Positions 6,838 through 60,974 of a DNA stretch of 64,000 bases are shown in pieces; within the stretch, counting starts at the first letter, position 1; each line of letters starts with the position of its first letter. The DNA is from Candidatus Omnitrophota bacterium (GTDB lineage Bacteria > Omnitrophota > Gorgyraeia > Zapsychrales > Zapsychraceae). The stretch is taken from the NCBI GenBank assembly GCA_029261055.1, contig JAJDCA010000014.1, positions 143,984 through 207,983 of the forward strand, in the 5' to 3' direction. A program made the translations under genes and the position numbers. The notes below the pieces were generated by a model. The model searched no databases, was not told where the DNA came from, and worked only from the letters and a program-made list of their open reading frames with translations.

Positions 6838-6946
6838 ATTAAAGAAGCAAGAGGCAGAGAAGCAAGAAGCAAAGAATTAAGCAAATAAATTAATTTAGTT
6901 TTTGTTTTTTCTTTGCATCTTATTGCTTTACTTCTCTATTTCTTAA
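6838..6946. repeat. Copy A of a dispersed ~100-bp intergenic palindromic element with an AG-rich left arm and a CT-rich right arm
   Basis: The left arm aaagaagcaagaggcagagaagcaagaagcaaagaa and the right arm ttttttctttgcatcttattgctttacttctctatttctt are imperfect reverse complements. Related copies occur at 49670-49782, 50785-50890 and 55084-55178. This copy ends 15 nt before the exbB RBS and ATG. Confidence 0.6.
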
Positions 6947-6961
6947 AGGTGAGGAGAAGCA

Positions 6962-39921: not shown

Positions 39922-40389
39922 TTATTCCTTCCACCCATCAAATAGGTGTTTAAGAAATTTTTCTTTATGTAGGTTGAAGGCATGTTGTAAAATTAATTCT
40001 TGGGTTTCCTCCCCGGTGTTGTAGAAAGAAACGCCAATTTGGTTTTCTTTGCCTTCTTTTTTGGCCCAGAGAATATTTCCATTAAGATTAACGGTTGTTT
40101 TTGGTGATAGGTAAACGGTTAATTTAATTTTTTGGTTGGGGGCAAACTTAGTATCTGAAGTAATACAAGCCCCAGCACAACTTAGGTCTTGGGTATAACC
40201 TTCGTACGTTTCTTTGGTTTTGTCTAATTGATAGGAGACAGCATTTTTAACTTCCCATCGTGGAAAATACCTTTGATCAGAATCAGTTGCGGCATTTTCA
40301 TCTGTTTTATGTGAAGACATATATTCCCCCCTTTCTGGAAAAGGTTTGATGATTGTATGAATAGTTAATAAGAAATAAAAAAAAGCCAC
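39922..40389 (-). CDS. PilZ-domain protein (putative c-di-GMP receptor)
   Basis: 155 aa with an RxxxR motif (RYFPRW) and a DxSxxG motif (DLSCAGA) about 30 aa apart. Convergent with ksgA. Confidence 0.65.
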   Translation of the reverse strand: MAFFYFLLTIHTIIKPFPERGEYMSSHKTDENAATDSDQRYFPRWEVKNAVSYQLDKTKETYEGYTQDLSCAGACITSDTKFAPNQKIKLTVYLSPKTTVNLNGNILWAKKEGKENQIGVSFYNTGEETQELILQHAFNLHKEKFLKHLFDGWKE

Positions 40390-45835: not shown

Positions 45836-45888
45836 GGGCATGATAAATCATGCCCGTACGGGGGGGTGTCATTTGTAGGGGCATGATT
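45836..45888 (+). repeat. Two tandem near-identical hairpins in the gatA-gatB spacer
   Basis: gggcatga-taaa-tcatgccc (45836-45855) and gggcatga-ttca-tcatgccc (45869-45888). The 8-bp stems are identical and they are separated by a G-rich 13-nt linker (45856-45868). Confidence 0.6.
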
Positions 45889-45917
45889 CATCATGCCCTT
45901 TAACGCCATTTAATTTT

Positions 45918-48718: not shown

Positions 48719-49696
48719 ATGGTGATCCTTGGCATAGAAACATCTTGTGATGAAACAGCAGCGGCCGTTGTCAAAGATGGAAAAGAAGTTTTCTCCAATG
48801 TAGTCATGTCCAGCCTGAAAGAACATAAGAAATTTGGCGGGATTATTCCAGAGTTGGCGTCTCGGAGGCAGCTTGAATGGATTCAGACGGTTGTTAAACG
48901 GGCCCTAAAAGTAGCAGACCTTACATTAGACGATATTGATGCTGTTGCCGTGACATCACGGCCGGGGCTGATCGGATCTCTTTTAGTGGGTATTTCATTC
49001 AGTAGAGCTTTAAGTTTTTCTTTGAACAAACCGCTCATTAACGTCGATCACATCAAAGCCCATTTGTATGCAAATTTTTTAAGGCAATCATCTGCGGAAG
49101 AGTACCCACAATTACCGGTTGTGGGGTTGGTTGTTTCTGGCGGGCATACATCTTTGTACCATATCAAGAATTTTGATCAATTTAAACTTTTAGGGCAGAC
49201 ACGCGATGATGCGGTGGGAGAATCTTTTGACAAAGTCGCACGGATTTTAGACTTGGGGTATCCTGGTGGACCGGCCATTGACCGTTTGGCGAAAGGTGTT
49301 CAACCTACCGGGCAGATACGGTTTAAATGTGCTGATTTACCCAAGACGTATGATTTTAGTTTTAGCGGCATAAAGACGGCCGTTCTTTATTACGCTCGTG
49401 ATCACAAAACACAGAAGGATTTTGATGTGGCTGCCGTTGTCCAAGCATTTCAACAAATTGTTGTTTCTGTTTTGGTTAAGAAGAGTATTTATGCATGTCA
49501 AGAATTAAAGACCAAATCACTTGTCGTTGGTGGCGGTGTTGCGGCCAATTCGCTTCTTCGCAAACAACTCATGCACGAAGCAAAGTTGCAGGGCATAAAG
49601 GTATTTTTTCCATCAATGTCTTTATGTATGGATAATGCTGCGATGATTGCGGGATTAGGGTATTGGAGTAGGGAAAAGCAAGAAGCAAAGTTGTAA
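48719..49696 (+). CDS. tsaD: tRNA N6-threonylcarbamoyladenosine synthase TsaD (Kae1/Gcp family)
   Basis: ILGIETSCDETAAAVV, and HxxxH-type metal site residues (HIKAHLYA). Confidence 0.9.
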   Translation: MVILGIETSCDETAAAVVKDGKEVFSNVVMSSLKEHKKFGGIIPELASRRQLEWIQTVVKRALKVADLTLDDIDAVAVTSRPGLIGSLLVGISFSRALSFSLNKPLINVDHIKAHLYANFLRQSSAEEYPQLPVVGLVVSGGHTSLYHIKNFDQFKLLGQTRDDAVGESFDKVARILDLGYPGGPAIDRLAKGVQPTGQIRFKCADLPKTYDFSFSGIKTAVLYYARDHKTQKDFDVAAVVQAFQQIVVSVLVKKSIYACQELKTKSLVVGGGVAANSLLRKQLMHEAKLQGIKVFFPSMSLCMDNAAMIAGLGYWSREKQEAKL

Positions 49697-49782
49697 GAAG
49701 CAAGAGGCAAAGAGGTAAAAAAATAAATTTGATTTTTTGGTTTTTCTCTGCATCTTATTTCTTTGCTACTCTGTTTCTTTAA
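49670..49782. repeat. Copy B of the dispersed AG/CT palindromic element
   Basis: The left arm gaaaagcaagaagcaaagttgtaagaagcaagaggcaaagagg overlaps the last codons and stop of tsaD. The right arm tttttctctgcatcttatttctttgctactctgtttcttt is about 85% identical to the copy A right arm. The element ends at the mgtC RBS. Confidence 0.6.
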
Positions 49783-49796
49783 AGCGAGGAGGAGAT

Positions 49797-50784: not shown

Positions 50785-50890
50785 ATAAAAGAAGCAAAGG
50801 TGTAAAGAGGCAAGATGCAGAGACAAAAAAGTCAGTAGAGATTTTAAATCTTTGCTTCTTGTTTCTTATTCCTCTGCTTCTCTAAAAAAA
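50785..50890. repeat. Copy C of the dispersed AG/CT palindromic element
   Basis: aaagaagcaaaggtgtaaagaggcaagatgcagagacaaaaaa ... ctttgcttcttgtttcttattcctctgcttctctaaaaaaa. Ends directly at the ATG of the following gene. Confidence 0.6.
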
Positions 50891-51193
50891 ATGACGGCAT
50901 CCCAATTCATATCCGTAAGAGAAACAGCCCAAATACTTTCTGTATCTGAGAAGAAAGTGATGGAAATTATTGCCGACCGAAAGTTGCAAGCCTACCGCAT
51001 TGCCAATAAATTTTTACGTCTCAAAAAAGCCGATGTATTGTTTTTGCGTAATTCCGGCAACATCGCCACCGAAACCATGGCTCACGCATACACCTCCTCC
51101 GAAAAAATAAAAGACTTTTTCTATTTTAACGACTTTTACCTACTCTCCGCCGTCTTCGCCAGCGGCTTGCTGTACGTCATATTTTTTACATAA
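50891..51193 (+). CDS. Small tail-anchored protein: N-terminal excisionase-type HTH plus a C-terminal TM helix
   Basis: MTASQFISVRETAQILSVSEKKVMEIIADRKLQAYRIANKFLRLKKADV (HTH_17-like), then a linker and the C-terminal helix LLSAVFASGLLYVIFF. ATG at 50891 preferred over the TTG at 50852, which lies inside the repeat. Confidence 0.5.
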   Translation: MTASQFISVRETAQILSVSEKKVMEIIADRKLQAYRIANKFLRLKKADVLFLRNSGNIATETMAHAYTSSEKIKDFFYFNDFYLLSAVFASGLLYVIFFT

Positions 51194-51283: not shown

Positions 51284-54200
51284 ATGAAAAAAATGTGTAA
51301 AATAATCATTTTTCGTGTTTTTGTGTGGTTAATCTTTTTTATCTTTATGGTTCAAGGGATAGGGCCTTTGCCATTGTCCCATGCTCAGACATCTATGCCT
51401 ATCGAAGGTTCTGGTGTGCAAGGTTTACGTTTGGGGTTAACACCAATGTTTACACCTGTTTTGCTTAAAGGGATTAAAATTTTCCCGAGTAATCCATTTC
51501 AGTTTGAGTTTATGGTGGGTGCGGGCAATACGGTTGTGCAGGGTGATTTACTCAAAAAAGAATCATCCCGGCTTGTTAAATACTTTTTAACATCCCTTAC
51601 AGTCCCGGATGCAGATTTGTGGGTTAATCTTTCTCCAGACGAACCAGATCGGATTATTCCCGAGCAATTTGGTCAAACCGAAATGGGACGTGACCTGTTG
51701 GCACAGGACTACAGGCTGAAACAAATCACAGCATCATTGATGTATCCGGAAGATGAGTTAGGGGAAGAATTTTGGGATCAGGTGTATGAGCAGGTGTATC
51801 AAGAATATGGAACAATGAATATTCCGATTGATATGCTTAACAAAGTTTGGATTGTGCCGGAGAAAGCCGTTGTCTACGAGAATGTAGAAATGAACACGGC
51901 ATTTGTGCTGGAATCACGGTTGCGTGTTATGCTGGAAGAAGATTATGTAGGGGAGGGGCTTGCCCCCTCCCGTATTACGGGCAGACGCAAGGCCCGCCCC
52001 TACAGTAATTCTAATAAGATTTCCACCGCAGTCATCCGTAAAATTATTATTCCCGCCATTGAACGCGAAGTTAATCATGGACAGGGATTTTCTAAATTAC
52101 GCCAAATTTACCATTCCTTGATTCTTGCCACATGGTTTAAGCGCAATCTTAAGAAGTCTATTTTGAGTCAGATCTATGTGGGTCAAAATAAAATTACAGG
52201 TGTAGATATCCATGACAAACAAGCGAAAGATAAACTTTACCATCAATATTTAAAGGCCTTTCAGAAGGGGGCATACAACTACATCAAAGAAGATTACGAC
52301 CCGGTTACTCAGCAAATCGTACCCAGGAAGTATTTTTCAGGAGGGATTGAGTTGGCGATGCTTTCTTCAGGAAAAAAAGTTTTTGAGGCATTAGATGCGG
52401 CCATGCAGGTTACGAAAGAAATTTCGGATCAGTTGTTAAAAGAAATAACAGGGAAAACAGCAAGTTTTAAAGTACCTGTAAAGATTCTTCCAGAATCGGG
52501 GAAGGACACAAAAGGGACAAATTTAGGAATTTTTACAGCAAAAAAACAAAAGAAATTTAGAAATATTATTAATCCTAAAAAAGTAAAAACAGCGGAAGAT
52601 TTAGTCCGCATTATTGAGCAAATAAAAAAGGATAATATCCCAAAGGAAAGAAATTATTCCAAATACAGCCGCGTTTTAATAACCGGAATATCCATTCTTT
52701 CGCATGAATTGTACCAGCCATACCTTAATGATTTAGCCCGTATTAAGCTGAATGAGCTTAATACATTGGAAATTGACATCCAGGAATCTGACTTTAATTG
52801 GACAAAAGATATGCTGCATAGATTGCAAGTTTTAGCCAATTTTATCCCAACCATCGAAAATCCTAATGAGGACTTATTTATTGATGTTTTTGCAGGTTTT
52901 ACGGATGAACAGATAAAGATACTAGCAAATTCAGGGGATTTTCTGGATTTACAATTAAGTAAAAATTGTGTGCATCAATGTCTGTTTTGTAATGTTTCAA
53001 AGAATACGATACAAGGGGCCCCACGGCATATGCCATTTTCTCTTGCCATCAAAATAGCAAAGCGGATTCGTCGAGAAGGGCAATCTAATGTAAGTTTATA
53101 TCGGAAGAGCGACCCTTTGCATTATCATGACAAGGTCATTAATGCCACGTATGGTGATGTTGCTAGGCACTTAATTCCACTAGGGTATTATCTTTCTACA
53201 ATAACGCATGGGGATACAGGTGTTTTAGGGGAAGAGAATATGCGAGAAATTGTAAAAAGGTTTCCTCCATCCTTGTGGGGGCTCGAATTTAGTTTAAATG
53301 CTTATTATGCGAATGTAAAAAGGTATGCAATCAAAAAGGTGAATGGTGAAATAGATGCTGCGGAGGATGATGAAGTTAGGCAAAAACTTGTAAAGCCATA
53401 TGTGGATAATTTTGCTTCATTATTAGTAGAGCTTATTCCACAGGTTGAAGTAGACATAAGAGATCTTTTTTATGGTAAAAAAGTCGAGAAAATTTTGGAA
53501 GGGGCTGGTTTGCAGTTTGCGCTATCTGTTGTCAAAGAAATGCAATCTGTGCAAAATAAAATTTGGGAAGATGTCGGTAAAATTGTTTTTGAAAAAACAG
53601 GAAAATATATTCCTGTAAAGCATGATTTTGAATTTACAAGTGGCATTCGTTTTACTTATGATATGGTTTGGGAAAGTGATGCTGTATCATTTTTAAAAGA
53701 GTTAGGTGTTAAGGAAGATATTATTAGAGGCATTAATAAAAGTACACAAAGAGGGTTAGATGATCGTACTGAAGGCGAAAATTTTGTTTTACAGATTAAT
53801 ACAAATGGTTCTTTGTCATTACGAGTTGCAGAGGCTGAGGATCTTCGATTTAGAACCTTTGAAGAAATGTTTACGAGCGCTGATGCGGAAGGATTTCGCT
53901 CTTTTTTAGAGGTTATTAAAATTGTTCTTAAAACAAATTCTTTTAAATTTGATAAACAAATGGATGCAAAAGTATTAAGAAAAGATGTTAGTAAGGGGGT
54001 GCTTAAAAAATTATTTAAGAATGCTCTTAATTCCTCGGAAGATATTGAGAAATTCTTAATTAATAGAAGTTATTTGGTGAAAGGTTCAACACTTCAAACA
54101 TTCCACTATTTTGAAGTATTATTTGGTTTTTTTTATTCTAAAGAAGACATGTTGGCTGATTTGAAAAATAAGAAGTTTGAAGATATGTTTGAGAAATTAA

Positions 54201-54757
54201 AAAAAGTGCCTTTTCCTATTGGGGTAGACTTTTTTGTTAAGTTTAAACAAAAACAGTTTTTAGATAGGTATTCTTACCGAATTATTAAGGATCAGCATCC
54301 AAGATATCCGAGAAATATTAATCAATCAGTTCGTCATTTCAATTTGTCAAAAAATGTATTTTCCTCATTAAGAGAAAATAATCCTCTTGAAATTGAATAT
54401 GAAAAGTTAGAACGCCCGTCATTTATTGATGAAAGCAACCAAACTGCTTTTTATGATTCGGCACTTCTTGCAGACGGGCTTAATGAGAAATTTGGCGGGA
54501 TTGATTTGACTGCGGATAGTTTGCCTTTGCAGGCACGTGGAGAGGGAATTGAGTTTAAGTTTCCTTCTAACAGTAATATTCCTTGTTTCGATGATGACAA
54601 CGACGGTACCTGTGACCGTATTGATGTAGAAGGGCTTGCTACTATGTCCATCACGGGATTTCGGCCGGAGTTTTTTGAAATTGTGCCGGTGAATAGTGTG
54701 TCGGGATGGTTGGGCATTTCAGTGCAACGACCAACCATCCCAGATCTGTCTTTATGA
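51284..54757 (+). CDS. Giant hypothetical protein (1157 aa) with an N-terminal signal or anchor sequence and a central CX3CX2C motif
   Basis: Long uninterrupted ORF. N-terminus MKKMCKIIIFRVFVWLIFFIFMVQG. About 560 aa in: SKNCVHQCLFCNV (CX3CX2C), followed about 40 aa later by SDPLHY, which recalls the radical-SAM GGEPL position. No other family is recognisable by eye. Confidence 0.6.
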   Translation: MKKMCKIIIFRVFVWLIFFIFMVQGIGPLPLSHAQTSMPIEGSGVQGLRLGLTPMFTPVLLKGIKIFPSNPFQFEFMVGAGNTVVQGDLLKKESSRLVKYFLTSLTVPDADLWVNLSPDEPDRIIPEQFGQTEMGRDLLAQDYRLKQITASLMYPEDELGEEFWDQVYEQVYQEYGTMNIPIDMLNKVWIVPEKAVVYENVEMNTAFVLESRLRVMLEEDYVGEGLAPSRITGRRKARPYSNSNKISTAVIRKIIIPAIEREVNHGQGFSKLRQIYHSLILATWFKRNLKKSILSQIYVGQNKITGVDIHDKQAKDKLYHQYLKAFQKGAYNYIKEDYDPVTQQIVPRKYFSGGIELAMLSSGKKVFEALDAAMQVTKEISDQLLKEITGKTASFKVPVKILPESGKDTKGTNLGIFTAKKQKKFRNIINPKKVKTAEDLVRIIEQIKKDNIPKERNYSKYSRVLITGISILSHELYQPYLNDLARIKLNELNTLEIDIQESDFNWTKDMLHRLQVLANFIPTIENPNEDLFIDVFAGFTDEQIKILANSGDFLDLQLSKNCVHQCLFCNVSKNTIQGAPRHMPFSLAIKIAKRIRREGQSNVSLYRKSDPLHYHDKVINATYGDVARHLIPLGYYLSTITHGDTGVLGEENMREIVKRFPPSLWGLEFSLNAYYANVKRYAIKKVNGEIDAAEDDEVRQKLVKPYVDNFASLLVELIPQVEVDIRDLFYGKKVEKILEGAGLQFALSVVKEMQSVQNKIWEDVGKIVFEKTGKYIPVKHDFEFTSGIRFTYDMVWESDAVSFLKELGVKEDIIRGINKSTQRGLDDRTEGENFVLQINTNGSLSLRVAEAEDLRFRTFEEMFTSADAEGFRSFLEVIKIVLKTNSFKFDKQMDAKVLRKDVSKGVLKKLFKNALNSSEDIEKFLINRSYLVKGSTLQTFHYFEVLFGFFYSKEDMLADLKNKKFEDMFEKLKKVPFPIGVDFFVKFKQKQFLDRYSYRIIKDQHPRYPRNINQSVRHFNLSKNVFSSLRENNPLEIEYEKLERPSFIDESNQTAFYDSALLADGLNEKFGGIDLTADSLPLQARGEGIEFKFPSNSNIPCFDDDNDGTCDRIDVEGLATMSITGFRPEFFEIVPVNSVSGWLGISVQRPTIPDLSL

Positions 54758-55069: not shown

Positions 55070-55083
55070 TGTGTCTCCTTTTT

Positions 55084-55178
55084 TAAAAGAAGCAAAGATG
55101 TAAAGAGGTAAGAGGTAGAGAAAAAATCATGTTGATGAAGCTTTTCTCTGCTTCTTGCGCCTTTGCTTCTTGTTTCTT
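55084..55178. repeat. Copy D of the dispersed AG/CT palindromic element
   Basis: aaaagaagcaaagatgtaaagaggtaagaggtagagaaaaaa ... cttttctctgcttcttgcgcctttgcttcttgtttctt. Lies between the bolA stop and the grx RBS on the minus strand. Its arms are nearly identical to copy C but arranged in a different order. Confidence 0.55.
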
Positions 55179-55182
55179 AACA

Positions 55183-55443: not shown

Positions 55444-55477
55444 AAAATATTCCTTTCGAGTGAACCGTACACAAACC

Positions 55478-56425
55478 TCATGCAGACCCCCGAGGTTTGT
55501 GTCTGGTTACAAAGTCAATAACAGTATCTTCTAAACGGCCGTTGTTCAGCCGGTTGATTTCTTGTAAACAGGTAGGGGAGGTGACATTGACTTCGATGAG
55601 ATGATCACCGATTACGTCGATGCCTACAAAGTGCAACCCCAGTTTTTGTAAATGCGGTTTGAGAATTTGAATGATTGCCTCATCCCGCTTGGTTATTTCG
55701 GCGGGCATGGGTTTGCCGCCGGCAAAAAAATTGTTACGGTGTTCATCTTTTGCGTGCACACGCAATACCGCTCCGAGAGGGTCGCCATTAAGAAGAAGGA
55801 TGCGTTTATCGCCTTGGCTGGCTTCAGGTAAACATTGTTGCAGGATAATATCCTGAGCGCCATTGTGTGTTAAGGTTTCGATGATGACGCCAATATTTGT
55901 GTCGCCTTCACGGATACGAAAGATACCTTGGCCACCGTAGCCATTGATGGGCTTGGTGACGATTTCTTTTTCTTCAGATAAAAAGGCAAGGATGTCTGCT
56001 TTATTGCGTGTGATCAGGGTTCGGGGAATGAGCGAAGAAAATTGTGTCACCCAAATTTTCTCATTCGTCGTACGAATACCATTGGGGCTGTTCATGACAA
56101 GAATGCGTTCAGGCAATAAATCCAAGAGCCAGGTATTAAATAAATATTGAGCATCAAAAGGTGGATCATTGCGGATGAATACGGCATCAATGCTGTCTTC
56201 CGTTAAGGTAGCCATTTCATGTTGAATAAAGGGCTGTTCAGCGACTTGCTGGGGTGTGACTTCCGTGCAAGTAAAATGAAGTTTCCCATTTTTTTGTGTC
56301 AGTCCACCATTGTGGCAGGCATACACCTTGTGCCCTTTGCGATGGGCGCCGAGCATTAGAATAAACGATGTGTCTTTCTCCATGATGACGGTATGGAGAG
56401 GGTCCATGAGGAATACAAAATTCAT
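55478..56425 (-). CDS. gshB: Glutathione synthetase (prokaryotic ATP-grasp GshB)
   Basis: Aligns along its length with E. coli GshB: MDPLHTVIMEKDTSF, IRNDPPFD, LITRNKADILAF, GDKRILLLNGDP, VGIDVIGDHLIEVNVTSPTC. Confidence 0.9.
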   Translation of the reverse strand: MNFVFLMDPLHTVIMEKDTSFILMLGAHRKGHKVYACHNGGLTQKNGKLHFTCTEVTPQQVAEQPFIQHEMATLTEDSIDAVFIRNDPPFDAQYLFNTWLLDLLPERILVMNSPNGIRTTNEKIWVTQFSSLIPRTLITRNKADILAFLSEEKEIVTKPINGYGGQGIFRIREGDTNIGVIIETLTHNGAQDIILQQCLPEASQGDKRILLLNGDPLGAVLRVHAKDEHRNNFFAGGKPMPAEITKRDEAIIQILKPHLQKLGLHFVGIDVIGDHLIEVNVTSPTCLQEINRLNNGRLEDTVIDFVTRHKPRGSA

Positions 56426-57783: not shown

Positions 57784-59025
57784 CTACTTGGTTTGTTTGT
57801 GGTTTACAAGTTTTTGCACGACCATGCTGCCGATGGTGTCGCCTTCGACATTGACGGTGGTGCGGATAGCATCAAGGATGCGGTCGATGGGGAGAAGGAT
57901 GGCAATCGCTTCAGCCGGGAGGCCGACGGATTGCAGGACCATCACCATCGTTACCATGCCGGCACTTGGAATGCCTGGTGCACCAATGGCGGCAATGATG
58001 GCGGTGAAAAAGACAACGAGTTGTTGAACAATATTAAGATCAATACCCATGATGTTGGCCACAAAAAGAGCAGCCACGGCTTCGTAAAGAGCGGTGCCGT
58101 CCATGTTAATGGTGGCCCCTAAGGGCAGAACAAATCCAGCCACATCTTTGTCGACTTTTAAATTGTTTTCGACACAACGCATGGTAATCGGCAGTGTCGC
58201 AGAACTTGAACTTGTTGAGAACGCTGTTACGAGAGCTTCACGAATTCCGCCTAAGAATTTTAAAGGGCTGAATTGTGTGACGGCAAACAAGATTGTTGGT
58301 AGAGTTACAATGCCATGAAATAGTGTAGCCCCAATCACGACGGCCATGAATTTACCTAGAGCAGACAGGAGTGTGACGTCTTGTGTCGCAATTAATTTTA
58401 TCAAAAGGGCCATGATGCCGATGGGGGCAATACGCATGATCCAGCCGACCATCATCATGATGAGCTCAAAAAATTCATTGAGAATGTTAAGGATATTTTT
58501 AGCTTTTTGACCAGCCATGACAAGGGCAATACCTAAAAGTAAGGCAAATAAAACGGTGGGTAAAACTTTTCCTTGAGCCATGGCTGCAAAAGGATTCATA
58601 AAGAGATTAGAAAAAAATGTTTGAATGAATTGAGAGAGCGTAACAGAGTCAGCAGAAAATGAGGCCATTGCATCCTGAAATAAAGCAACTTCAAGGCCAA
58701 CGCCGGGTTTAAATACGTTAACGACAATCAAGCCCAGGAGGACAGAAAGGGCTGTTGTGGAAATAAAATACACAAGGGATAGCTTCCAAACACGATCCAT
58801 TTGCGCGTGTGCCCGCAGGTTAGCAATACCCACGGTAATAGAGGTAAAGACGAGCGGAATCAAAATCATTTTTAAAAGATCAATGAAAATACCGCCTGCA
58901 ATTGTGCAGCCGTAAAGCGTGGGGGAGTAGACCGCATGTTCAGCTCCCAAGCGGCTTAAAATTAGCCCACCGAAAATGCCAATTACGGCGCCAGTCAGGA
59001 TTTGGAAGTTTAAGGAAAGTTTCAT
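57784..59025 (-). CDS. Dicarboxylate/amino acid:cation symporter (DAACS/SDF family)
   Basis: 413 aa with eight TM segments and re-entrant loops (SSSSATLPITMRC, GATINMDGTALYEAVAALFVANI). The substrate is not assignable; a TcyP-like cystine transporter is possible. Confidence 0.8.
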   Translation of the reverse strand: MKLSLNFQILTGAVIGIFGGLILSRLGAEHAVYSPTLYGCTIAGGIFIDLLKMILIPLVFTSITVGIANLRAHAQMDRVWKLSLVYFISTTALSVLLGLIVVNVFKPGVGLEVALFQDAMASFSADSVTLSQFIQTFFSNLFMNPFAAMAQGKVLPTVLFALLLGIALVMAGQKAKNILNILNEFFELIMMMVGWIMRIAPIGIMALLIKLIATQDVTLLSALGKFMAVVIGATLFHGIVTLPTILFAVTQFSPLKFLGGIREALVTAFSTSSSSATLPITMRCVENNLKVDKDVAGFVLPLGATINMDGTALYEAVAALFVANIMGIDLNIVQQLVVFFTAIIAAIGAPGIPSAGMVTMVMVLQSVGLPAEAIAILLPIDRILDAIRTTVNVEGDTIGSMVVQKLVNHKQTK

Positions 59026-59134
59026 TCAGAAATGGCCTCATTATTTAATTTCTTTAATGATTTAAAAATAGAATAGCAGTTTTTCTTAAAAGTACAACCA
59101 AAATTCTTACAGTCAGGGGTAATTTGAGTGGGCC

Positions 59135-59172
59135 TAGTTGTGAAATTGCCCTGCGGGGCAACTTCACAAGTC
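59135..59172. promoter_or_regulatory. Inverted-repeat operator-like element, copy 1 of 2
   Basis: TGTGAAATTGCCC-tgcg-GGGCAACTTCACA: 13-bp arms with one mismatch around a 4-bp spacer. Lies in the divergent intergenic region between the DAACS transporter and tolC. Confidence 0.5.
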
Positions 59173-59316
59173 TGTTAAAATTAAATTTTTTGTGTTAAAG
59201 GTGGGGTAGGTTAGGTTTAATTATTCTTTGAATAATGATGTGTCTTTATGTTGCTAAAATCTTGATTTGTACATTTATTCGTCGGTATTTTTAAGATTAT
59301 TTTCATTAGAATTAAT

Positions 59317-59340
59317 AAGTACGTACGCGCGTACGTACTT
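59317..59340. repeat. 22-bp perfect palindrome of alternating purine/pyrimidine
   Basis: AGTACGTACGCGCGTACGTACT (59318-59339) is its own reverse complement; 24 bp if the flanking A/T pair is included. The 16-bp core acgtacgcgcgtacgt is strictly alternating purine/pyrimidine. Confidence 0.7.
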
Positions 59341-59364
59341 TATTGTCGGGAATATGGGGTGGAA

Positions 59365-59400
59365 AGTTATGAAATTGCCCCGTGGGGCAACTTTACAACT
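59365..59400. promoter_or_regulatory. Inverted-repeat operator-like element, copy 2 of 2
   Basis: TATGAAATTGCCC-cgtg-GGGCAACTTTACA, about 90% identical to copy 1 as a direct repeat 226 bp downstream. The core TTGCCC-N4-GGGCAA is perfect in both copies. Confidence 0.5.
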
Positions 59401-59423
59401 AGGATTTTATTGAGATTTATTGA

Positions 59424-59458
59424 AACCGTAAACACACCCCGGGGGTCTGTTTACGGTT
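59424..59458 (+). promoter_or_regulatory. Strong hairpin 44 nt upstream of the tolC ATG
   Basis: aaccgtaaaca-(13-nt loop cacccc ggggg tc)-tgtttacggtt: a perfect 11-bp stem with no T-tract after it. Confidence 0.5.
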
Positions 59459-59501
59459 AGTTTACACTTGACATTAAATTGCATGTAATTAAGATGAAGG
59501 C

Positions 59502-60974
59502 ATGTTTTTTACTAAAAATTTAATTGTATTAATTATTTTTAGCATCATTTTTTTAGGGGGATGGGTTGAAGGGGAATGTGCGGATTACACTCTCTCCCTG
59601 GAAAAAACAACGCAGCTGGCCCTTCAAAATAATTTTGACATTCAACTCGCGAAATACGATGCTTGGATTGCCCGGACGGACAAAAAAGTAGCGGAGTCTA
59701 TTTACGACACTATTTTTGAGGCCGAAGTCCAATACCGTGACAATCAGAAAAAACGCACCTCGACAATCATTGGTACGCAGGCCTTGGACAATGATTACAA
59801 TATTGGACTTTCAAAAAAATTACCTACCGGGACAACACTTGAAGTTGATCTAATGAACAGTCGTAACTTTACAGATTCAGTATTTACTACGTCACCCTTA
59901 ACGCATGATTCGACCTTAGGGATGACAATTACGCAGGAATTAGGAAAGAATTTTTTTGGCCTTCGTGATCGTTGGGGTATTAAGATTGCGTTGGTGGATA
60001 TTGAAAATAGTGAGTACACGTCACTTGAGAAAATTGAAGAAGAAATTTCTGATGTACAGAAGGCGTATTGGGATTTAGTGCTTCAGATTGAACGTGTTAA
60101 AATTGAACAAGACATGGTGGATCAAGCCAAACGTTTGTACGATTTGCATCAGGAAAAATTGAAGGATGGTCTGGTGGAGATGCCGGATGTTTTGGCGTCG
60201 CAAGCAAATTACGAAAAGAGTAAAAATGATTTGATCTTTGCAGAGAATCAAGTGCATGCCAAAGAAAATGTGCTGCGATTGCTTTTAAACATTTCCGATG
60301 ATCACATCCGTATTCTTCCGACAGACACCTTTGCGCTTCCTGAACTCCAAAGGCCATTAGCGCCTACCCTTAAGAAAGCTTTTGAAAACCGTCGTGATTA
60401 CAAGCGGGCGGTTAATGATGTGAAGTCGAAGGACATTCAGCTAACCGTTAAAAAAAATAATTTGTGGCCGGAAATTAATTTAACGGCTTCTTTAGAGCGT
60501 AACGGCCTCGGAGATCATTTTAAACCGGCGGTTGAAAATATTACGAGGGAAGACAATCCAAATTTATTTGCTGGGCTGACCATTAACATTCCATTAGAAA
60601 ATCGTGCGGCGCGCGGAGCAAAGAAAGCGGCTGAATTAGAAAAAGCCAAGACTTTGGTGGCTTTAAAATTGCTTGAACGCAAAATTACCCTTGAGGTTGT
60701 CGATCAAGTCCGTGACAGTAATGTGTTTGCTGAGCTGGCCGACAACAGCGAACACATCGCCAATCTGCAAGCGCAGAAGTTGGAAGAGGAAGGTAAGCGA
60801 TTCCGTCAGGGCCGTTCCGACACAGATACCCTCATTCGTTTTCAGAAAGATGTTGTTCAGGCAAGAGCCGAAGCGGCCGCAGCCAAGCACCGTTACCATG
60901 CCGCGATGGTGGATTTAGAAACCAGAAGCGGGGTGCTTTTGGGGAAGTATTTTGACTTAAGTGCTAAGTGGTAA
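59502..60974 (+). CDS. tolC: TolC-like outer membrane efflux protein (OEP family)
   Basis: 490 aa with a signal peptide and two OEP repeats with coiled-coil segments. Immediately upstream of an RND pump gene. Confidence 0.8.
   Translation: MFFTKNLIVLIIFSIIFLGGWVEGECADYTLSLEKTTQLALQNNFDIQLAKYDAWIARTDKKVAESIYDTIFEAEVQYRDNQKKRTSTIIGTQALDNDYNIGLSKKLPTGTTLEVDLMNSRNFTDSVFTTSPLTHDSTLGMTITQELGKNFFGLRDRWGIKIALVDIENSEYTSLEKIEEEISDVQKAYWDLVLQIERVKIEQDMVDQAKRLYDLHQEKLKDGLVEMPDVLASQANYEKSKNDLIFAENQVHAKENVLRLLLNISDDHIRILPTDTFALPELQRPLAPTLKKAFENRRDYKRAVNDVKSKDIQLTVKKNNLWPEINLTASLERNGLGDHFKPAVENITREDNPNLFAGLTINIPLENRAARGAKKAAELEKAKTLVALKLLERKITLEVVDQVRDSNVFAELADNSEHIANLQAQKLEEEGKRFRQGRSDTDTLIRFQKDVVQARAEAAAAKHRYHAAMVDLETRSGVLLGKYFDLSAKW

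Follow-up and report, generated by a model that had tools for sequence, protein, structure and literature searches.

Four related palindromic elements of about 95-115 nt are located between genes in a 64-kb window (the whole stretch of DNA analyzed here) of a 321-kb Candidatus Omnitrophota metagenome contig. They form a repeat family with conserved hairpin potential, and copies present in the window are missing from orthologous sites of related genomes. No promoter or terminator consensus was detected inside the elements and no Rfam family matches them. They are regarded here, with moderate confidence, as lineage-restricted dispersed foldback repeats resembling repetitive extragenic palindromic (REP) sequences and miniature inverted-repeat transposable elements (MITEs), probably operating as intercistronic RNA hairpins that affect processing or stability. 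A preliminary description of the window had recognized a dispersed palindromic intergenic repeat and assigned it a regulatory role; the first part of that interpretation stands, whereas the second was not sustained.

A family of four copies

The four elements noticed earlier were recovered by a repeat finder, by counting a core 11-mer and by nhmmer (Table 1). The repeat finder joined their purine-rich halves in one direct family (D1; also D2 and D8) and matched each purine half, inverted, to the pyrimidine halves of other copies (I2-I4, I10, I17). The core 11-mer AAGAAGCAAAG, allowing up to one mismatch, occurs 13 times in the window vs 2.5 +/- 1.5 in shuffled sequence, a count reached by 0 of 100 shuffles, and 10 of these occurrences fall inside the elements. 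An nhmmer search at maximum sensitivity with a profile of the four copies returned exactly those four in the 64 kb (E 1e-21 to 1e-24), the next-best match having E = 3.3. Copies 2, 3 and 4 are grouped within 5.5 kb, and a further 8 kb of the same genome (about 72 kb covered in total) contained no additional copy.

Filled and empty sites in relatives

At the exbB and grx4 junctions the window carries filled sites whose orthologous counterparts are empty, as is characteristic of MITEs. Loci of metagenome-assembled genomes (MAGs) are given below by L numbers. The spacer between the TPR gene and exbB measures 133 nt in the window vs 14 nt in L188 (TAAGAGGAGAAAATACTATG), one of the nearest sampled relatives at exbB (ExbB 84% identical), where it is empty; it is 28 nt long in L193 and L194, and L189-L192 have spacers of unrelated sequence with ordinary hairpins. 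Between bolA and grx4 the window has 113 nt vs an empty spacer of 20 nt in L224, which belongs to the same vent MAG as L188 and shares the gshA-gshB-bolA-grx4 synteny, with a large convergent gene alongside; the corresponding spacer of L225 (70 nt) is unrelated in sequence. In both filled sites the element lies between the stop codon and a Shine-Dalgarno (SD) site that is already there in the empty site.

A covariance model of the family (R1) found no copy in about 85 kb of exbB and grx4 relatives, and nhmmer and blastn found none in 1.1 Mb of other metagenome loci except L129. Parsimony favors gain of the copies after the split from the nearest sampled relatives over their repeated loss. The conservation upstream of orthologous genes that marks a gene-specific leader was not found at these junctions; since they are empty and the downstream genes are unrelated, the element is not a conserved regulator, and the proposal of an attenuator or riboswitch-type regulator in the 5′ untranslated region (5′-UTR) of exbB, mgtC, the HTH gene and grx is not supported.

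The grx4 relatives also differ from the window in gene content: in L224 and L225, gshB and bolA are separated by a gene for an additional small glutaredoxin (78-83 aa). The window lacks this gene and has in its place only a spacer of 34 nt that contains a hairpin (Table 1).

Architecture and folding

In each copy a purine-rich 5′ arm (80-82% purine) is joined by a short A/T-rich loop to a pyrimidine-rich 3′ arm (77-82% pyrimidine) complementary to it, which is the layout first described. The term AG-rich used at that time is correct for the purine content but falls short of the organization of the arms, which are built of alternating, degenerate tandem units of 7 and 8 nt (e.g., AAGAAGC / AAAGAGGC; also AAGAGGC and AGAGAAGC). 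In autocorrelation the eight arms show maxima at lags 7, 8 and 15 (0.44, 0.47 and 0.55 vs 0.39 shuffled), and Tandem Repeats Finder (TRF) reports periods 7, 8, 15 and 22 inside copies 1, 2 and 4; examined as head-to-tail heptamers, the units show degeneracy (68-85% matches) and face an inverted array with which they pair. Two sub-families that differ in loop sequence are distinguished: copies 1 and 2 share 79% identity across 119 nt that include the loop, and copies 3 and 4 share 88% across the 43 nt of the 5′ arm. The G+C content of elements and stems is 27-34%.

As plus-strand RNA each copy folds into one long imperfect stem-loop of 36-45 pairs, with paired regions of 92-113 nt; folding of the individual copies, a check suggested in the preliminary description, gave significant stems in all cases (z -2.5 to -7.6), and no shuffle reaches the stability of the copy in question. 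These RNA folds (-31 to -45 kcal/mol) are far stronger than those of single-stranded DNA, which range from -13.5 to -18.5 kcal/mol (z about -1 to -4) and are near-equal on both strands, a difference that mildly favors RNA as the level at which the structure matters. The 5′ arms contain SD-like GAGG motifs and the 3′ arms anti-SD-like CU tracts. Small open reading frames (ORFs) in the arms were rejected as a general property, only copy 3 carrying an SD-ATG ORF (7 codons).

The purine arm comes first on either strand, as follows from the palindromic nature of the element. Among the sequence-distinct variants of the window and related MAG loci, 11 unit hairpins are purine-first and none is truly pyrimidine-first; this fixed polarity is weak evidence since it is inherited within one family.

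Conservation of pairing

RNAalifold applied to the four copies gave 24 consensus pairs, one of them compensatory (covariation term +0.19), a result that is uninformative because the arms are too alike in sequence. A broader alignment of 37 rows aligned with model R1 represents about 19 elements from several MAGs. In it 89.9% of the cells pair vs 86.0 +/- 0.5 in shuffles, both-side changes occur at 19 of 24 pairs vs 9.2 expected, and sliding the partners against each other lowers pairing to 49-67%, figures that are to be read considering that the alignment was fitted to the structure, that both strands of each element are counted and that upkeep of a palindrome at the DNA level would yield an identical signal. 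The complementarity of the arms exceeds composition controls and is not the mere AG/CT drift contemplated as an objection in the preliminary description; because it is kept beyond such drift, the hairpin is a real property of the family.

Strand asymmetry

An excess of G opposite T on the plus strand had been put forward as an argument for a structured RNA over a DNA site. The excess exists, but it is modest and weaker than claimed: the minimum free energy folds of the plus strand contain 24 G.T pairs vs one A.C mismatch, a count inflated because folding favors G.T, and alignment of the 5′ arms to the reverse complement of the 3′ arms gives 18 G.T/T.G vs 8 A.C/C.A. Plus-strand RNA folds are more stable than minus-strand ones in all four copies, by 4.6-20 kcal/mol, and the largest gap is that of copy 4 (-45 vs -25 kcal/mol), which is flanked by minus-strand genes and in whose assumed mRNA the wobbles become C.A mismatches. 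Since this copy belongs to a minus-strand operon, the wobble excess is no proof of an RNA role, and the argument built on it is weak and inconsistent.

The favored strand coincides with that of the mRNA in three copies and with the G-rich, presumably leading strand in all four, and every wobble of copies 3 and 4 can be written as a C-to-T change on the plus strand. Mutation bias of the C-to-T type is a confounder because the favored strand is the G-rich strand of a skewed window. In the loci of other MAGs gene strand and skew strand coincide, and the favored strand agrees with them in 11 of 18 (7 of 9 when the energy gap is at least 5 kcal/mol). The asymmetry is equally compatible with selection on sense RNA and with replication-strand mutation bias; copy 4, a single case, points to the latter.

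Genomic placement

The window has 33-45% G+C and a positive GC skew throughout (+0.04 to +0.27 in 2-kb windows), and nearly all of its genes, including almost all of those from 1 to 54.7 kb, are on the plus strand. Spacers between co-directional genes are mostly 0-50 nt long; the four that bear an element measure 100-133 nt, and subtracting the elements leaves 5-25 nt. The distance from element end to next start codon (16, 15, 0-1 and 15 nt for copies 1-4) agrees with the 0-20 nt from ribosome-binding site or ATG originally reported, a closeness that follows from element-free spacers of only 14-20 nt. The real SD sites of copies 1, 2 and 4 are outside the main stem and are not sequestered, and copy 2 overlaps the final nine codons of tsaD. 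The flanking genes are housekeeping genes, mutually unrelated (TPR/ExbB, TsaD/MgtC, bactofilin-HTH_17/HTH_17, BolA/Grx4).

A consensus scan detected no sigma-70-like promoter in the elements and a terminator scan no stem followed by a T-run; with no T-run site inside and stems of low G+C they do not have the form of intrinsic terminators, and a promoter or terminator role was rejected in the absence of consensus sites. Canonical hairpin-plus-T7 terminators do occur elsewhere in the genome (e.g., in L223; Table 1). Scans of Rfam 15 with gathering scores (window and 18 loci) and by E-value (49.5-55.4 kb) found no family in the elements, only generic hairpin matches, below threshold, to models of plant miRNAs and snoRNAs, in keeping with the earlier remark that it was not recognized as a known riboswitch.

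Other structured sequences are found in the window (Table 1). A c-di-GMP-I riboswitch (RF01051; 49.7 bits vs a gathering score of 35) follows genes for PilM, PilO, secretin, an MshE-type ATPase and GspF and precedes an N-methyl (pilin-like) gene cluster. Other small, G+C-richer palindromes are repeated as well and could be operators or a second repeat family: the sequence TTGTGAAATTGCCC(C/T)G(C/T)GGGGCAACTT(C/T)ACAA, which appears twice in one divergent spacer, hairpins resembling ACCGTAAACACACCCCGGGGGTCTGTTTACGGT, the 20-bp sequence GTACGTACGCGCGTACGTAC, which is a perfect palindrome, and a pair of GGGCATGAT..ATCATGCCC hairpins.

Table 1. Coordinates of the four elements, their arms and other features mentioned in the text (window positions unless a locus is named; CM, covariance model)
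Feature	Position	Strand	Context and scores
Copy 1	6838-6948	+	TPR gene (stop 6828) to exbB (ATG 6962); paired 6842-6944, 42 pairs; -30.8 kcal/mol, z -3.1; nhmmer E 7e-22; CM 91.4 bits
Copy 1, 5′ arm	6842-6892	+	80% purine; TRF periods 7, 15 at 6841-6876; units AAGAAGC AAGAGGC AGAGAAGC AAGAAGC AAAGAAT...
Copy 1, 3′ arm	6896-6944	+	82% pyrimidine; 6 nt before SD site GGTGAGGAG
Copy 2	49668-49784	+	tsaD (stop 49694-49696, within 5′ arm) to mgtC (ATG 49797); paired 49669-49781, 45 pairs; about -33 kcal/mol (-33.0), z -2.5; TRF periods 7, 22
Copy 2, 5′ arm	49669-49725	+	purine-rich; start of arm codes for final 9 TsaD residues
Copy 2, 3′ arm	49730-49781	+	pyrimidine-rich; followed by AAAGCGAGGAGG (SD site), then ATG
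Copy 3	50785-50892	+	bactofilin-HTH_17 gene (stop 50780) to 100-aa HTH_17 gene (ATG 50891); paired 50790-50881, 36 pairs; -40.7 kcal/mol, z -7.2; CM 99.4 bits
Copy 3, 5′ arm	50790-50833	+	purine-rich
Copy 3, 3′ arm	50840-50881	+	pyrimidine-rich; followed by A-run and ATG, without SD site
Copy 4	55082-55180	-	bolA (minus, stop 55183) to grx4 (minus, ATG 55069); paired 55087-55178; plus-strand RNA -45.0 kcal/mol (z -7.6), minus-strand -25.1 (z -2.5)
Copy 4, arm purine-rich on plus strand	55087-55130		TRF periods 7, 8
Copy 4, arm pyrimidine-rich on plus strand	55135-55178		
c-di-GMP-I riboswitch RF01051	16625-16709	+	
ORF encoding a PilZ protein	39922-40389	-	
1157-aa protein	51284-54757	+	
Divergent spacer with two palindromes	59025-59502		TTGTGAAATTGCCC-type at 59136-59169 and 59365-59398
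ACCGTAAACACACCCCGGGGGTCTGTTTACGGT-like hairpins	59425-59460; 55460-55512		
20-bp palindrome	59320-59339		
Twin hairpins	45836-45859; 45879-45898		
Spacer with a hairpin at the place of the extra glutaredoxin gene	55443-55478		
Extra glutaredoxin genes	L224 5487-5723; L225 5432-5683		between gshB and bolA
Hairpin-plus-T7 terminator	L223 4890-4930		
Compound UBA10147 elements	L023 3052-3209; L051 1353-1513; L044 201-360 and 5372-5500		
Sequence-distinct purine-first hairpins	L044 1565-1662; L051 3650-3726; L018 903-1040		intergenic
Octamer-unit hairpins	L004 4967-5050; L077 558-660; L081 7715-7808; L084 5249-5322; L094 6509-6616; L089 5833-5949		intergenic
Octamer-unit hairpins (continued)	L015 2626-2682; L038 8-66; L068 1162-1220; L046 982-1064; L050 2146-2229; L074 3782-3840		intergenic

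Members of the family in other genomes

A scan for the two-arm pattern in one genome per species returned more than 111 loci, including loci in the Omnitrophota MAGs UBA10147, NC_groundwater_1970 and STB_166 and two (L043, L058) in a MAG labelled Pseudomonadota. The elements of these MAGs, whose genomes have 38-55% GC, are 73-92% identical to the window copies and the likeness is confined to the element; UBA10147 and its like have 53-55% G+C, so elements of 32-36% G+C stand out in them. Two UBA10147 copies from different loci (L023 and L051) are 88% identical over 163 nt with unrelated flanks, and L029 and L058 share 85% identity over 82 nt. In these pairs, as in copies 1 and 2, similarity ends at the element edges and takes in the loop. 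Because it is limited in this way and the flanks are unrelated, the sequence pattern indicates that a defined DNA segment was copied, rather than that each element grew locally and independently.

The UBA10147 elements are compound, with a pyrimidine-unit array that runs well past the paired region. They include, as part of the repeat, a conserved flank, TTGGGCAT(A/T)NCTTAAAAG, whose ATG mimics a start codon on the opposite strand and can yield false ORF starts. The same MAGs contain sequence-distinct, purine-first intergenic hairpins of like architecture made of other units (GTAGAGAG/GTAAGAGA, GCAAGG/GCAAGGAG and GAAGATGG/GAAGATAG).

In viral contigs the two arm orders were matched 16 and 12 times, no more than expected by chance, and no unit hairpins were found, offering no link to phages; plasmid BLAST with copy 4 and a Chitinophaga hairpin produced no match, and literature searches on the raw motifs retrieved nothing relevant. 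The N-terminal ~360 residues of the 1157-aa protein encoded between copies 3 and 4, with a weak Radical_SAM match, recur at 41-59% identity in 74 metagenome loci (L113-L186), some contigs holding two or three paralogues, and this domain appears to be widespread and uncharacterized; the 74 loci have only the N-terminal domain in common, with no synteny and almost no elements.

Proposed role and alternative explanations

According to the interpretation preferred here, the copies would have been added by a copy-and-paste process after the lineage split from its nearest sampled relatives, and would persist only where they are harmless, which in so compact and strongly strand-biased a genome means the short gap that separates a stop codon from the following SD site. 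The elements are most likely transcribed, because they lie inside or between co-directional transcription units, and the RNA would form the long stem-loop described above. Its likeliest effect would be generic and structural, the hairpin being cleaved by a double-strand-specific nuclease of the RNase III type and/or blocking 3′ exonucleases, and by analogy with Correia, ERIC and REP sequences it would uncouple the stability of the flanking cistrons.

Several points weigh against this proposal. Transcription and processing are deduced from sequence, and the hairpin of copy 4 is much weaker in its own mRNA, a poor fit to a purely mRNA-level role. No transposase or REP-associated tyrosine transposase (RAYT) is encoded by the 20 window ORFs scanned against Pfam; the lone minus-strand ORF of its region, considered as a candidate, encodes a PilZ protein instead. 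No clear target-site duplication was seen at the four copies: AAAG is found at both ends of copies 1 and 2, but the same four bases also form the end of the palindrome and belong to the SD context, and the relatives are too diverged for a base-exact comparison of insertion edges. No cognate autonomous insertion sequence with the same ends was seen in the 72 kb of this genome or in 8-kb pieces of other MAGs. Since about 72 kb were examined and three of the four copies are clustered, dispersal across the genome is an extrapolation, and gain in this lineage, resting on parsimony, falls short of proof.

A cis-regulatory RNA in the 5′-UTR of the downstream gene (attenuator, thermometer, riboswitch-like leader or translational coupling) would account for the position of all copies 0-16 nt from the next SD site or start codon, for strong RNA folds with pairing kept, for the plus-strand excess of G.T over A.C oppositions and for the GAGG motifs and CU tracts of the arms, and has a precedent in short tandem units before start codons, the TAACTGA repeats (PMC4679880). 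It is nevertheless improbable, given that the exbB and grx4 junctions are empty in the closest relatives, that the products of the downstream genes (ExbB, MgtC, HTH_17 and Grx4) have no common function, that loops and unpaired parts differ between sub-families, that the real SD site is outside the stem and that closeness to the start codon is forced by spacers of 14-20 nt; to this are added the lack of an Rfam match and the poor folding of copy 4 on the strand of its downstream gene. If the structure mattered in DNA, as a cruciform or a hairpin of the single strand that is tied to replication or recognized by a recombinase or transposase, RAYT-like or not, the asymmetry would follow the replication strand, and indeed all four copies, copy 4 included, favor the G-rich, presumably leading plus strand and the wobbles of copies 3 and 4 are all expressible as plus-strand C-to-T changes; presence/absence polymorphism and edge-limited similarity imply DNA mobility as well. 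This explanation is considered unlikely: the single-stranded DNA hairpins are weak and near-equal on both strands, the window ORFs scanned include no candidate enzyme nearby, copy 4 is the only informative case given that gene and skew strands coincide in the other MAGs, and DNA mobility is also compatible with an effect at the RNA level.

There is a low probability that the elements arose by local growth without function or mobility, through slippage of SD-like purine units of 7/8 nt and template switching that perfects quasi-palindromes. Unit order and loop sequence are common to copies at unrelated sites (copies 1 and 2, L023 and L051), the family recurs at 73-92% identity in MAGs of 38-55% GC, and arm complementarity is above composition controls, all of which speak against such an origin; the degenerate tandem units of periods 7, 8 and 15, the continuation of the arrays as unpaired CT runs in some MAG copies (L044, L023) and the near lack of covariation among the four copies agree with it. 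It is very doubtful that the elements are bidirectional attenuators or terminators without a classical U-tract, in which the inner stem would form first and the U-rich outer 3′ arm (CUUGUUUCUU) would provide a weak hybrid. Such a function would account for the constant 5′ position of the purine arm on either strand, which holds in all sequence-distinct variants seen (11 vs 0), and similar unit hairpins in other phyla are often located between convergent genes (L003, L004, L039, L069, L083). The window copies, however, lie inside apparent operons (bolA-grx4, TPR-exbB) directly before SD sites, where termination would silence the downstream gene; they have no terminator consensus in a genome that uses ordinary hairpin-plus-T7 terminators, and a polarity inherited within the family is not independent evidence.

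Comparison with known repeat systems

Hairpin MITEs such as Correia/NEMIS of Neisseria and the enterobacterial ERIC/IRU are about 100-150 nt long with long inverted arms, insert near genes, are co-transcribed and show presence/absence polymorphism between relatives. Correia elements are processed by RNase III in mRNA, and elements of this type are proposed to be substrates of RNase III or RNase E that alter the stability of flanking cistrons. The Omnitrophota elements share their size, long inverted arms, insertion near genes and presence/absence polymorphism, are short (<300 bp) and non-coding with terminal inverted repeats as MITEs are, and the mechanism proposed for Correia elements is judged the likeliest for them too. 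They are unrelated in sequence, no TA or other target duplication was recognized and no IHF site or promoter was found in them, and their arms are low-complexity unit arrays instead of unique terminal inverted repeats. TIGR arrays, CRISPR and attC were also considered and dropped, their period, context and partner genes being unfit.

REPs are palindromes of 20-40 bp with an unpaired GTAG or CGTC tag that are grouped in two super-families (Di Nocera et al., 2013, PMC3733652). The designation REP/BIME-like (BIME, bacterial interspersed mosaic element) of the preliminary description holds in a broad sense: the elements are dispersed, non-coding, palindromic, intergenic and species- or lineage-specific, they are found between co-directional genes (in other phyla, convergent ones) and they are plausibly transcribed and would act as RNA hairpins. 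Unlike REPs they measure about 100 nt, their arms are strictly purine-then-pyrimidine arrays of 7/8-nt tandem units, no RAYT is encoded by the window ORFs scanned and no consistent tag is present, GTAG being found only at copy 2, inside tsaD, and neither tag in copies 1, 3 and 4; membership in the defined REP super-families was rejected for size and lack of tag. BoxC repeats are likewise dispersed and intergenic, with purine and pyrimidine blocks and non-B-DNA potential, but their intrastrand triplex motif needs three such blocks (Holder et al., 2015, PMC4666352), whereas the window copies have two, with runs interrupted by C or G every 7-8 nt, and a BoxC-like triplex was rejected for them.

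Long, near-perfect hairpins of tandem 8-nt units (NNGCAAAG / CTTTGCNN), often bounded by (T)CACGCAAAG ... CTTTGCGTG(A), were encountered in Chitinophagaceae, Chlamydiae, Blastocatellia, Flavobacteriales and Chloroflexota (60-67% GC). They account for at least 12 of 111 pattern matches (Table 1), are all intergenic and purine-first, several of them between convergent genes, and correspond to no Rfam family or paper found; as the set was picked by the search pattern used here, its breadth is real and a frequency is not derivable from it. Purine-first hairpins made of 7-8-nt GCAAAG-type unit arrays might form one class across phyla with a shared RNA-level function, in which the window elements would be the degenerate branch found in Omnitrophota; this is held to be rather unlikely because of that same choice of the set. 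Such a class could serve as a U-tract-independent bidirectional terminator or processing signal, or else as a register-shifting docking array for a single-strand binder, e.g., S1 or a cold-shock protein, and the fixed purine-then-pyrimidine polarity would then be its functional signature.

If the interpretation given here is correct, the family would be a new entry, from a phylum without a cultured model, in the catalogue of bacterial hairpin repeats. It would be a marker of recent change among the genomes of closely related Omnitrophota, it can mislead gene callers, as copy 2 supplies the last tsaD codons, and it would offer a natural test of whether strand-asymmetric G.T pairs come from RNA selection or from replication-strand mutation bias; wider value would follow only if the unit hairpins of the different phyla turn out to form a single functional class.

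TAACTGA direct repeats occur in Beggiatoaceae, Cyanobacteria and Bacteroidetes a few nucleotides from start codons of unrelated downstream genes, with a patchy cross-phylum distribution and no known transfer mechanism, and S1, Csp and CsrA were suggested as binders (PMC4679880). These repeats and the cyanobacterial STRR heptamers resemble the present elements in the 7-nt scale of the tandem units, the intergenic location near start codons, the unrelated downstream genes and the patchy distribution across phyla; they differ in that a single heptamer is repeated exactly, in direct orientation and with no inverted partner array, whereas here the units are degenerate and always paired. The architecture of the Omnitrophota family, with 7/8-nt unit-array arms and the purine arm always first, is unusual, and the combination of degenerate arrays, an obligatory inverted partner array and purine-first order was not found in Rfam or in the literature searched. 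By analogy, the nearest counterparts in behavior would be REP/BIME sequences and the hairpin MITEs Correia and ERIC, and the nearest in architecture would be the tandem heptamer repeats located just upstream of start codons.

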